This document shows positions 16,797-18,772 of a stretch of DNA of 32,000 bases, one piece after another. The stretch lies in NCBI GenBank assembly GCA_036821825.1, contig DAISIV010000040.1, forward strand, positions 39 to 32,038. The letters run 5' to 3'. This stretch comes from Deltaproteobacteria bacterium (lineage in GTDB: Bacteria; Desulfobacterota; Desulfomonilia; Desulfomonilales; Desulfomonilaceae). The position numbers and the translations under genes are program-made. The notes under the pieces are model-generated. The model was given only the letters and a program-made list of their open reading frames with translations, did not search any database and had not been told where the DNA came from. Within the stretch, counting starts at the first letter, position 1; every line of letters begins with the position of its first letter.

Positions 16797-16829
16797 TTGA
16801 CATTGACGAAATACATTATTACATATAAT
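16797..16829 (+). promoter_or_regulatory. Candidate sigma70-type promoter for arsR-hgcAB
   Basis: Tandem -35-like hexamers TTGACA (16797-16802) and TTGACG (16803-16808). A perfect TATAAT lies at 16824-16829. The spacers are 21 and 15 nt, and neither is the ideal 17, so confidence is moderate. Confidence 0.4.
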
Positions 16830-16835
16830 AATGTA
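16812..16835 (+). promoter_or_regulatory. Perfect 10-4-10 palindrome, candidate ArsR-family operator overlapping the -10 element
   Basis: TACATTATTA-CATA-TAATAATGTA. The arms 16812-16821 and 16826-16835 are exact reverse complements. The palindrome sits 25 nt upstream of the arsR-like ATG and covers TATAAT. ArsR/SmtB repressors typically bind AT-rich dyads of about this size. Confidence 0.5.
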
Positions 16836-16859
16836 ACATTTCAGAAGGACAAACGGTTC

Positions 16860-17222
16860 ATGGATCCACGACTAAACGATGCATGCTGCCCCGATAAGCC
16901 TCATCTAAAAGATCGTCCGCTTATTTCCGACAACATGGCTAAAAAAGTTGAGTCTCTATTCAAACTCCTGTCAAACGCCACTCGACTCAGGATGTTGCAC
17001 GCCCTGACTATTAAAGGTGAGATGGGAGTAAGTGAGCTATCGTCAAAAATTGGCATGAAACCTCAGGCAGTGTCCAATCAGCTACAAAAGATGATGGACA
17101 GAGGCGTACTCACCCAGCGCCGAGACGGACTCAGGGTGATCTATTCCATCCGGGATTCCTGTGTAATAGGGCTTCTGGAACAGGGACTCTGCCTGATTGA
17201 AGACTTGCAAACCGATCAGTGA
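16860..17222 (+). CDS. ArsR/SmtB-family metalloregulator-type transcriptional repressor
   Basis: Winged-HTH signature LFKLLSNATRLRMLHALTIKGEMGVSELSSKIGMKPQAVSNQLQKMMDRGVL. I start it at ATG 16860 (MDPRLND...), which has AAGGA about 10 nt upstream. The track's TTG 16797 would make the promoter and palindrome coding sequence. Confidence 0.85.
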   Translation: MDPRLNDACCPDKPHLKDRPLISDNMAKKVESLFKLLSNATRLRMLHALTIKGEMGVSELSSKIGMKPQAVSNQLQKMMDRGVLTQRRDGLRVIYSIRDSCVIGLLEQGLCLIEDLQTDQ

Positions 17223-17360
17223 CCAGGGGTTTATATTAGGATGAGCATTCAATTTTTGGAGACAAGTGTGCCTAAACGGCCTGTAAATAGCTCGCTAGAG
17301 CTGGATCTAACGGCTTTATCATCACAGGGCACGACTTGATGTTCAGTCAAGGAGACTCAG

Positions 17361-18422
17361 TTGAGTCCTCCAAGCATCAACCAACCTTTTGTGACAGGAG
17401 TTATCGAGACGGCTGCAGGAAAAATACCGGTCGTCTCAAGGGTGATAACTTTAAAGGACCGTTTGGGCTCGATGAAAGTCCGTTGCGGAATCGGCCGGAG
17501 TTCTTATCGCGTTGATCCAGGGTTGTATGCTTTGGGAAACCCGGATTCAGAGTCCGAGATTTTGGTCACAGCCAATTACAAGCTCACGTTTGACACACTC
17601 AGGGCATGCGTTGGAGAGCGATCATTCTGGTTGCTGGTTTTGGACACACATGGGGTCAATGTCTGGTGCGCGGCCGGGAAGGGGACTTTTGGCACAGATC
17701 AACTCGTTAGCAGGATAGGATCGTCCCGCTTGCACTTACTCGTAAGACACAGGCGCCTGATAGTTCCACAATTGGCGGCTCCGGGAATATCTGCTTGGGA
17801 AGTCAAGAAGATGTCGGGATTCAAAGTGATTTTTGGGCCAGTTGAATGCCTTGATTTGGCTGAATTTATGGACAATGGATTGGTGGCGTCCCGGTCAATG
17901 CGGTTTAAAAATTTCGGTCTTGCAGACAGAGCCACGCTCATTCCAGTGGAATTGTTGCACTCGATGAAGATAGGAGTGTGTTTCAGTTTTCTCAGTCTGA
18001 TCCTGGGTGGATTTTTGGGACAAAATCATTTTTTTGAAAACGCTGTCAAATATGGCGGAGTGATGAGCGCGGCTATTTTCATCGGCATATTTTCCGGGGC
18101 AGTCCTTGGCCCATTGCTTTTGCCGTGGCTTCCGAGTCGTTCTTTTGCGGCAAAGGGCGCCGTAATTGGGATGATTACACCTATGACCATTTTGGCTCTA
18201 ACTAAAGGATTTCTTGATTCTACATGGTCTCTTTGGGAGGCCGGGACAATATTTATGGTGTCTATGGCGGCGGCGTCCTGTTTGACAATGAATTTTACGG
18301 GCTCTTCTGTTTTTACTTCTTTATCCGGCGTCAGGAAGGAAATGAAATGGGCAATCCCTTTTCAGATAGTGGTTCTTGCATGTGGCCTGGTAGCCTGGGC
18401 GGTGTCATTTTTGGCGGAGTAA
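17361..18422 (+). CDS. hgcA: Mercury methylation corrinoid protein HgcA
   Basis: 353 aa. The N-terminal CFeSP-like corrinoid domain carries the diagnostic cap-helix motif NVWCAAGK (GVNVWCAAGKGTFGT; Cys103 codon at 17667-17669). The C-terminal half has about five predicted TM helices (e.g. GGVMSAAIFIGIFSGAVLGPLLLPWL, IPFQIVVLACGLVAWAVSFL). TTG start with AAGGAG 6 nt upstream and an in-frame TGA at 17337-17339. It is followed immediately by an HgcB-type ferredoxin. Confidence 0.9.
   Translation: MSPPSINQPFVTGVIETAAGKIPVVSRVITLKDRLGSMKVRCGIGRSSYRVDPGLYALGNPDSESEILVTANYKLTFDTLRACVGERSFWLLVLDTHGVNVWCAAGKGTFGTDQLVSRIGSSRLHLLVRHRRLIVPQLAAPGISAWEVKKMSGFKVIFGPVECLDLAEFMDNGLVASRSMRFKNFGLADRATLIPVELLHSMKIGVCFSFLSLILGGFLGQNHFFENAVKYGGVMSAAIFIGIFSGAVLGPLLLPWLPSRSFAAKGAVIGMITPMTILALTKGFLDSTWSLWEAGTIFMVSMAAASCLTMNFTGSSVFTSLSGVRKEMKWAIPFQIVVLACGLVAWAVSFLAE
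17658..17681 (+). other. hgcA: HgcA cap-helix signature N(V/I)WCA(A/G)GK coding segment
   Basis: Codons for N100-V-W-C103-A-A-G-K107. I verified gtc tgg tgc at 17661-17669. Confidence 0.9.
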
Positions 18423-18436
18423 AATAGGCTGGAACA

Positions 18437-18772
18437 ATGAAAAAGATGCTGTATCTCAAAAATGTGAGCACACTAAGCTTCAACCGCGACTTGTGCACGG
18501 GGTGCGGGACATGCCTGGAGGTTTGTCCAAGGGAAGTGTTTGCTCGGATTAATGGAGCTGTTCAGGTGGTGGAGCCGGACGCATGCATGGAATGTGGGGC
18601 ATGTTCAAAAAACTGTCCCGTCCATGCTGTTTTTGTCAAGCCCGGGGTGGGTTGCGCTCTTGCGGTAATAAACTCCGCTTTGGGGCGAAAAAGCTCTTCG
18701 TGTTGTTGTGTTCTGGACTCTGAGGATCAATCTCCATGTTGCTCATCCAACAAGTCTTCAGGCTGTTGCTGA
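18437..18772 (+). CDS. hgcB: Mercury methylation ferredoxin HgcB (2x[4Fe-4S]) with an extended Cys-rich tail
   Basis: 111 aa. Two CX2CX2CX3CP motifs: CTGCGTCLEVCP and CMECGACSKNCP. An additional conserved Cys sits in GVGCALAV (Cys73). The C-terminal tail has vicinal cysteines and ends in CC. The gene lies 14 nt downstream of hgcA. Confidence 0.88.
   Translation: MKKMLYLKNVSTLSFNRDLCTGCGTCLEVCPREVFARINGAVQVVEPDACMECGACSKNCPVHAVFVKPGVGCALAVINSALGRKSSSCCCVLDSEDQSPCCSSNKSSGCC

Follow-up and report, generated by a model that had tools for sequence, protein, structure and literature searches.

Does a stretch of DNA that carries an arsR-like gene in front of a corrinoid-protein gene and a ferredoxin gene encode a complete mercury-methylation system, and where does the hgcA gene of such a locus really begin? 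We asked this of a 32,000-nucleotide (nt) stretch from a Deltaproteobacteria bacterium (GenBank assembly GCA_036821825.1, contig DAISIV010000040.1, positions 39 to 32,038 of the forward strand), which is referred to as the window and supplies all positions given below. An original prediction, made from the letters alone, had read three forward-strand open reading frames (ORFs) at 16797-17222, 17361-18422 and 18437-18772 as arsR, hgcA and hgcB, and an ORF check found all three as described. On sequence evidence the locus is a genuine arsR-hgcA-hgcB mercury-methylation operon of a known kind, with methylation activity itself predicted: HgcA and HgcB both scored above their equivalog cutoffs and the residues cited for them were confirmed. 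We consider it highly probable that this is a vertically inherited hgcAB operon in which HgcA, translated from ATG 17241, carries Sec33-Cys34 and in which ArsR represses transcription at a palindrome.

We used profile hidden Markov models (HMMs) to place the corrinoid protein, as had been proposed. HgcA scored 395.4 bits on the HgcA equivalog NF040863 (cutoff 275, E = 1.8e-118). It stayed below the cutoff of the HgcAB-like fusion family NF043039 (175.6 bits, cutoff 285) and of the gamma subunit of the corrinoid iron-sulfur protein (CFeSP), NF003195 (68.9 bits, cutoff 306), where only residues 48-172 aligned, to profile positions 321-445. A Pfam match to CdhD was obtained at 43.4 bits. The cap-helix signature NVWCAAGK was confirmed on the sequence at residues 100-107 (17658-17681, forward strand), with the Co-ligating Cys codon at 17667-17669; this residue is Cys103 in the annotated short protein and Cys143 in the extended numbering. 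N100, V101, W102, C103, K107 and G108 were invariant in 32 HgcA homologs. An AlphaFold2 (AF2) model built on 32 homologs showed an N-terminal alpha/beta domain before five long C-terminal helices (194-218, 224-253, 262-285, 291-311 and 321-352; predicted local distance difference test, pLDDT, 80.6), matching the five or so transmembrane (TM) helices expected. The corresponding membrane domain is encoded by 17940-18416 on the forward strand, and Kyte-Doolittle windows agree with it.

The top match of the model in the PDB library was the deposited HgcAB model 9a0b_A (E = 1.7e-20, 42% identity), and a sequence search of the PDB found no solved HgcA. CFeSP structures matched across the corrinoid domain of ~130-155 residues only (Foldseek 8e-6 for 2h9a and 4djd; phmmer 1e-8 over residues 49-170). 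The cap-helix segment with the essential Cys (residues 99-108, 17655-17684) was the part of the model with the lowest confidence, at pLDDT below 50, probably due to the corrinoid missing from the prediction. Together, profile, motif and model show a predicted corrinoid protein, anchored in the membrane, that combines a cobalamin domain like that of CFeSP with a cap-helix Cys and five TM helices. The two sequence-level tests proposed with the original prediction, for a placement with CFeSP and for a missing TM domain, both left the HgcA assignment standing.

The partner gene, hgcB (18437-18772, forward strand), follows hgcA after 14 nt and encodes a 111-amino-acid (aa) 2x[4Fe-4S] ferredoxin that scored 112.3 bits on the HgcB equivalog NF040864 (cutoff 99, E = 7.3e-33). 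Both CX2CX2CX3CP motifs named in the original prediction were found, CTGCGTCLEVCP at residues 20-31 and CMECGACSKNCP at residues 50-61, as were Cys73 in GVGCALAV and the C-terminal vicinal cysteines (CC 110-111). Further cysteines are present as CCC 89-91 and CC 101-102, so that 7 of the last 23 residues are Cys, an unusually high share for the tail (residues 89-111, 18701-18769). Across the lineage CCC (89-91) and the terminal SSGCC were conserved, and CC 101-102 was specific to the window. In one related locus (L041, ~6075-6410) an intact 111-aa hgcB is encoded yet absent from the called genes of the NCBI metagenome-assembled genome (MAG), which surveys based on gene calls would score as hgcA-only.

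The start of hgcA had been placed at TTG 17361. This codon probably encodes an internal Leu in a longer ORF that contains a UGA, and we conclude that hgcA most likely begins at ATG 17241, 120 bases before the annotated start, with the UGA read as selenocysteine (Sec). The revised gene (17241-18422, forward strand) would encode 393 aa with Sec33-Cys34, in place of the annotated short form of 353 aa (17361-18422). The in-frame UGA (17337-17339, predicted Sec33) and the TGT codon of Cys34 make up a "U-C" motif at 17337-17342 on the forward strand. The same arrangement was found in 8/8 lineage loci (here and below, the window and seven lineage relatives): an ATG just after the arsR stop, 32-38 open codons, a single in-frame TGA followed by a Cys codon (TGY), and the old TTG exactly 8 codons past the TGA. 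The other two frames of the upstream stretch held 0-5 stops (mean ~2.8), and a G-rich motif resembling a Shine-Dalgarno sequence preceded the ATG in most lineage loci. Elsewhere in the window TGA is used as an ordinary stop, e.g. arsR ends in one, which shows that the code has not been reassigned globally.

Around the predicted Sec the extended protein reads ...LSSQGTT-U-CSVKETQLSPPSINQPFV..., and its segment GTTUCSVKETQLSPPSINQPFV aligned with TSCCGQRGKTQLSLPSLNQPFV of a longer homolog (P0042) that has Cys-Cys at this place. The same CC was present at the aligned position in P0024, P0030, P0034, P0035, P0066, P0069, P0077, P0078, P0083 and P0090. A census of 97 hgcA loci separated four N-terminal classes. 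The U-C class, with the lineage motif (G/S/T)-U-C-(S/L) and G-T-T-U-C-S-V in the window, was confined to this lineage and had no member among the other 89 loci. The C-U class comprised sister groups (E-C-U in L002, L003 and L005), Desulfovibrionaceae (P-C-U-G-P) and L045 (P-C-U-G-G), about a dozen loci were of the C-C class, and a class with no Cys pair was found in Bacteroidota. The UGA lies 8 residues before LSPP in the window and the U lies 8 residues before VSPP in L002; this equal spacing indicates that the Sec position is homologous and that the partner Cys has switched sides.

Bacteroidota-type HgcAs (L004, L006-L009, L012-L016, L033, L036, L039, L046-L060) had short N-termini with neither Cys-Cys, Cys-Sec nor Sec-Cys, and those of L011 and L096 had a long N-terminal extension devoid of Cys; the N-terminal chalcogen pair is thus not universal in HgcAs.

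Selenoprotein HgcA is already known. In their 2022 preprint (J Bacteriol 2023), Haft & Gwadz reported that 20/20 short HgcAs, including those of Pseudodesulfovibrio mercurii ND132 and GSU1440, extend upstream via one UGA, that PCUGP is "perfectly conserved", and that HgcB is occasionally a selenoprotein at residue 73. Their HgcA alignment (Supplementary Figure 7) holds C-U and C-C(-C) forms only, with no U-C, and a 2026 review table gives the HgcA motif as "CU". Judged on the preprint, this figure and that table, the U-C order appears to be an unreported variant.

A hairpin resembling a selenocysteine insertion sequence (SECIS) was found downstream of the UGA. We took minimum-energy folds on the 60 nt after the UGA, with its U as nt 1, and obtained the element GGAGACUC-AGUU-GAGUC(C)UCC at 17351-17371 on the forward strand, its apical loop at nt 23-26. 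An outer stem widens it to 17337-17379 (minimum free energy -14.1 kcal/mol, z = -2.3). The geometry is one that we take to be like that of E. coli-type bacterial SECIS elements (G23/U24). The old TTG "start" falls in the loop and 3' arm of this hairpin, whose 5' arm is what had looked like a "Shine-Dalgarno", AAGGAG. A tetraloop at nt 23-26 was shared by the window lineage, L002, L005, Desulfovibrionaceae and L045, with stem sequences that are unrelated between groups.

We also scored a 5-bp stem in a fixed register, with nt 18-22 paired with nt 27-31. All 16 UGA-bearing hgcA loci, including the canonical PCUGP Desulfovibrionaceae, carried the hairpin and together had 4.44/5 pairs, compared with 0.56-2.88 pairs in 36 shifted registers and 2.25 pairs in 12 Cys-form loci (clade-collapsed Mann-Whitney p = 0.007). 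Compensatory changes were present in the stem (CG/GC, UA/CG, AU/UA/GC), and the loops always had G at the first or second position, then U.

Several observations weigh against a selenocysteine in HgcA. No Rfam family (riboswitch, SECIS or other RNA) matched the whole window at gathering threshold, and no SECIS model or other family matched 16500-17500 at E <= 1. The hairpin overlaps conserved codons (Q-L-S/R), and protein constraint could explain part of its conservation. Neither Sec machinery (selA, selB, selC, selD) nor a second selenoprotein was found among the 18 other ORFs of the window with NCBIfam, and ARAGORN found no tRNA or tRNA-Sec in its 32 kb. The published PCUGP pentapeptide is not present in the window HgcA. 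The extension evolves fast, with nonsynonymous exceeding synonymous changes and no purifying selection seen, so that the case for coding rests on the open frame, the constant length, the ATG with its Shine-Dalgarno-like motif and the homology of the U/C site. An internal start at the TTG could still draw on the GGAG-like motif lying 6-8 nt ahead of it, and the short form of ND132 HgcA was active in E. coli lysate (PMC11588087), so the Sec arm is not essential in vitro.

Three other explanations were weighed. If the annotated model were right, HgcA would start at TTG 17361 and a 32-aa small ORF (17241-17339) with a true TGA stop, possibly translationally coupled, would precede it. The AAGGAG 6 nt before the TTG, the poor conservation of the small-ORF sequence, the missing SECIS match and the activity of short ND132 HgcA in vitro all speak for this, and public gene callers give products of 353 or 343 aa, with a 34-aa gene called here in L042. 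Gene callers never read through TGA, however, so their calls carry no weight on this question, and the same mis-annotation was described for 20/20 short HgcAs (Haft & Gwadz). Against this model, the stop is TGA followed by Cys in 8/8 loci without exception, and its position coincides in the alignment with the Sec or Cys that other HgcAs have in their N-terminal pair; the hairpin at nt 23-26 is common to canonical Sec-HgcA loci and absent from Cys forms, and AAGGAG is already accounted for as its 5' arm. We consider the annotated model distinctly unlikely. It is unlikely, too, that both products are made, i.e. Sec-HgcA when selenium is available and, under selenium limitation, a functional short HgcA by stopping at the UGA and re-initiating at TTG 17361. 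This would suit the invariant TTG, the Shine-Dalgarno-like GGAG 6-8 nt upstream of it in most lineage members and the activity of the ND132 short form, but the TTG and GGAG are accounted for by the hairpin and the conserved Q-L codons, and canonical CU loci have no start codon at the equivalent loop position.

The remaining explanation concerns identity: the corrinoid protein could be a paralog from the CFeSP of the acetyl-CoA pathway, or a relative of HgcAB-like fusions, with a function other than Hg methylation. Its Pfam match was to CdhD only, some sources name its homologs "acetyl-CoA synthase subunit gamma", and a 2026 preprint proposes halomethane dehalogenation as the native role of HgcAB. 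The profile scores given above fall on the other side, above cutoff for HgcA and below it for CFeSP gamma and the fusion. The protein also has the cap-helix Cys and the five TM helices, hgcB is a separate gene whose product carries Cys73 and a CC tail, and the neighbourhood holds no acs or cdh genes. We regard such a paralog as extremely improbable. Readthrough of the UGA from ATG 17241, with Sec33-Cys34 in HgcA, is the reading carried forward here.

The first gene of the operon also required a revised start. The ArsR-like ORF of the original prediction is real; its TTG 16797 start is probably 63 nt too far upstream. Met22 of the 141-aa ORF aligned with the Met at which the gene starts in 7 relatives, and the exact 120-aa product is already on record. 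We conclude that arsR most likely starts at ATG 16860, because the dropped 63 nt contain a putative promoter and a conserved palindrome. The revised gene (16860-17222, forward strand) encodes a 120-aa ArsR/SmtB-family regulator with Cys9-Cys10 codons at 16884-16889, Cys101 at 17160-17162 and Cys111 at 17190-17192; Asp99 and Glu114 are assigned to helix alpha5 along with the latter two.

A consensus scan found a single forward-strand sigma-70-like site upstream of the three genes (16803-16832), a match to consensus at 10/12 positions with the -35 element TTGACG at 16803-16808, an 18-nt spacer and the -10 element AATAAT at 16827-16832. The TTGAC of the -35 element was conserved in relatives, and the site is a putative promoter. 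An inverted-repeat search found a perfect 10-4-10 palindrome, TACATTATTA-CATA-TAATAATGTA, at 16812-16835, within a candidate ArsR operator at 16812-16837 that has no strand. A conserved core, ATTACAT-N6-ATGTAAC, spans 16818-16837; the core, also written ATTACAT-N6-ATGTAAT, occurred once in the 32-kb window, with 0.10 occurrences expected by chance. The palindrome was kept upstream of arsR in 8/8 lineage loci and the remaining intergenic DNA was not conserved. TACAY-N6-RTGTA was also present just upstream of start codons in distant members of the ArsR subfamily (L120, L121/L122 and L123; 49-66% identity). We predict that the palindrome is the cognate ArsR operator, and its overlap with the -10 element implies autorepression. 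The idea of a further operator ahead of hgcA was rejected, as the core was not found elsewhere in the window.

That ArsR-like regulators stand upstream of hgcAB in some methylators, as stated in the original prediction, is correct and published. The window ArsR scored 73.2 bits on NF033788 (cutoff 55) and matched Pfam HTH_20 and HTH_5. Its AF2 model (pLDDT 85) had a winged-helix fold with alpha1-alpha5 and a beta-wing, alpha5 being residues 100-119, and its PDB matches included SmtB, NmtR and CzrA. All four Cys (9, 10, 101 and 111) were invariant in 8/8 lineage loci. Among 41 members of the subfamily D99, C101, C111 and E114 were invariant, and C10 (in CPxKP) was nearly so. In the model C101 and C111 are part of helix alpha5, and Cys9/Cys10 belong to an N-terminal arm that is flexible. 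HMMER aligned D99 and C101 with D104 and H106 of SmtB, which form half of its alpha5 Zn site. Counting against this assignment, C111 and E114 fall one residue off SmtB H117 and E120, and the alpha5 analogy is therefore imperfect. The classic alpha3 As(III) site (an ELCVCDL-type CXC) is absent, the alpha3 region reading GEMGVSELS without Cys.

ArsR-like genes near hgcAB recurred in several phyla in the locus census and were non-orthologous. We rejected the idea of an ArsR dedicated to hgcAB, since distant members of the subfamily adjoin unrelated genes. In L121 (4001-5586; also L122, 2367-3637) the gene of the subfamily ArsR P0225 shares 4 nt with that of a 400-aa protein in which an MtrA domain (corrinoid-binding methyltransferase subunit) is combined with a DUF4346 pterin-binding domain, and a TACAC-N6-GTGTA palindrome lies upstream; this is a second, unrelated corrinoid/methyl-transfer protein under the same type of regulator. 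In L123 (1974-8375) the subfamily ArsR P0155 comes right after an ars operon (ArsR, DUF6428, LMWPc-type ArsC, MIP channel) and is followed by three genes without Pfam match, then an FtsX/ABC pair and a thioredoxin-like gene.

With the revised hgcA start the gap between arsR and hgcA is 18 nt, compared with 138 nt before, so the three genes form a tight operon. The 138-nt "spacer" had been considered as a known RNA element; this was rejected, as Rfam gave no match and the stretch turned out to be coding. hgcB was directly downstream of hgcA in ~37/40 species-representative loci. The flanks, which lie outside the system, are as first described. mutS (13962-16613, reverse strand; 1039 bits on NF003810) is divergent, with the same placement in L041, L042, L043 and L117. 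A sulfotransferase-family gene (18804-19907, reverse strand; Pfam Sulfotransfer_3, E = 1.3e-33) is convergent, 31 nt from the hgcB stop, with the same placement in L041 and L043. The order FtsX permease-mutS-arsR-hgcA-hgcB-sulfotransferase-LeuD-like-glgA was kept in relatives at 55-61% HgcA identity, and this conservation argues for an operon inherited vertically at a fixed site between mutS and the sulfotransferase gene rather than a recently acquired island. The base composition of the locus was unremarkable. The closest HgcA outside its own 90% cluster had 61% identity, and the closest named relatives were Syntrophaceae and Desulfomonilaceae MAGs; the host is an uncultured Thermodesulfobacteriota lineage of sulfate-reducer type.

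How the parts may work together can be proposed from these features and from ND132, where the corrinoid is reduced by HgcB to Co(I), is methylated by S-adenosylmethionine (SAM) and then donates the methyl group to Hg(II), forming methylmercury (SAM as donor: PMC11588087), and where HgcA Cys93 and HgcB Cys73, Cys94 and Cys95 are required. Transcription would run from one promoter upstream of arsR, and an ArsR dimer on the TACAT-N6-ATGTA palindrome over the -10 element would keep the operon repressed until a thiophilic ligand, bound at Cys101 and Cys111 (alpha5) and Cys9-Cys10, releases it. Translation of hgcA would start at ATG 17241, and UGA 17337 would be decoded as Sec aided by the hairpin ~20 nt downstream. 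HgcA would thereby gain a flexible N-terminal arm of 40 residues bearing the selenol/thiol pair Sec33-Cys34, which most plausibly captures or hands over Hg(II) together with the Cys tail of HgcB. HgcB and HgcA of the window would otherwise work as in ND132, through Co(I), its methylation by SAM and methyl transfer to Hg(II).

A bolder combination would have the HgcA arm rebuilt as Sec-Cys, ArsR with its all-thiolate alpha5-type site and Cys-Cys arm sensing Hg(II) or very thiophilic species directly, and the subfamily also controlling other corrinoid methyl-transfer proteins such as the MtrA/pterin-binding gene of L121. We think this quite unlikely as a whole. If ArsR did sense Hg(II), methylmercury production would be substrate-inducible, against the prevailing view that hgcAB expression is Hg-unresponsive.

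Loci of the hgcAB type are now annotated routinely, and what this one adds is two annotation corrections and three details of modest novelty: the U-C motif, a regulator not of the ArsR2 type that has a thiolate alpha5-like site, and a defined candidate operator. The locus predicts methylmercury production by an uncultured Thermodesulfobacteriota lineage. It also illustrates concretely how public gene models can cut hgcA short at a predicted selenocysteine codon; HMM-based hgcA surveys, the design of primers or probes and heterologous expression, where they rely on the short form, leave out the probable Hg-binding Sec-Cys arm. The U-C order means that the published PCUGP motif is not universal; what is retained is a selenol and a thiol side by side, at a set distance from the corrinoid domain. 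With its conserved operator and Cys-rich ArsR, the locus offers a testable handle on hgcAB control outside Desulfovibrionaceae, which is relevant to predicting environmental methylmercury. Sec insertion, Hg methylation and ArsR binding are, for this organism, predictions from its DNA.

Elsewhere in the window, an efflux cluster consists of a MacA-like adaptor, an ABC ATPase and two permeases of the FtsX/MacB type, and a third FtsX-type permease adjoins mutS and was kept beside the hgc locus in relatives (4311-8665 and 12595-13785 for the cluster and the third permease together). An 874-aa fusion of GlcD-like FAD oxidase, Fe-S and CCG (HdrD/GlpC-like) domains (9908-12532) was present in the same neighbourhood of L041 and L043. 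An IspH ORF (30216-32000) runs to the window end; its IspH part (residues 13-296) is followed by a C-terminal extension of ~300 residues with a weak prenyltransferase-like match. Among the four ORFs at 8667-9428 (-), 24745-25287 (-), 25572-26036 (-) and 26474-27862 (+) (253, 180, 154 and 462 aa), the 253-aa one had no NCBIfam match at E <= 1e-5 and the other three had none at E <= 1e-8.

We finally compared the locus with known systems. HgcA and HgcB were reportedly described in 2013, by Parks and co-workers, for ND132 and Geobacter sulfurreducens PCA. With the HgcA of these strains the window protein shares the N(V/I)WCAAGK corrinoid domain and five TM helices, at ~42% identity to the deposited HgcAB model chain and ~43% to Desulfovibrionaceae loci. 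Likewise, HgcB is in both cases a 2x[4Fe-4S] ferredoxin that is encoded separately, downstream of hgcA, and has Cys73 and a C-terminal CC; its tail is richer in Cys in the window. The CFeSP large subunit (AcsC/CdhE; PDB 2H9A, 4DJD) has a homologous cobalamin-binding Rossmann-like domain, but the window HgcA lacks its N-terminal 4Fe-4S and TIM-barrel domains and has a TM domain and cap-helix Cys instead. The Sec-HgcAs of Haft & Gwadz share the N-terminal extension behind a single in-frame UGA before the annotated start, the predicted length (393 aa, inside the published range of 363-400) and Cys-form homologs with CC at the Sec site. They differ in motif, which is x-U-C-S in the window and not P-C-U-G-P, the U being neither preceded by Cys nor followed by Gly-Pro. 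Residue 73 of HgcB is Cys in the window and Sec in ~6% of HgcBs (Haft & Gwadz).

For the regulator, the nearest functional precedent is ArsR2 (DND132_1054), which controls hgcAB transcription in ND132, where co-transcription was shown experimentally (Gionfriddo et al.). In both systems hgcA is immediately preceded, on its own strand, by an ArsR/SmtB-family gene with which it is presumably co-transcribed. In ND132 ArsR2 the cysteines, at 26, 47, 49, 86 and 88, follow helix 2 and precede helix 4, whereas the window ArsR has Cys9/10 and 101/111. A search of the Desulfovibrionaceae loci L018, L021 and L022 with the profile of the window-lineage ArsR gave no adjacent homolog. As set apart by the published Cys positions and this profile search, the two are probably not orthologs. 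PDB 6UVU, a solved member of the subfamily deposited as "ArsR family transcriptional regulator", matched the subfamily profile at E = 6.5e-52 and shares C-x-x-KP ... D-P-C-x9-C-L-I-E; unlike 6UVU and most subfamily members, the window lineage is without the alpha3 "ELCV" Cys. Compared with the SmtB/CzrA alpha5 class, the predicted ligands of the window ArsR are thiolates, not His or carboxylate.

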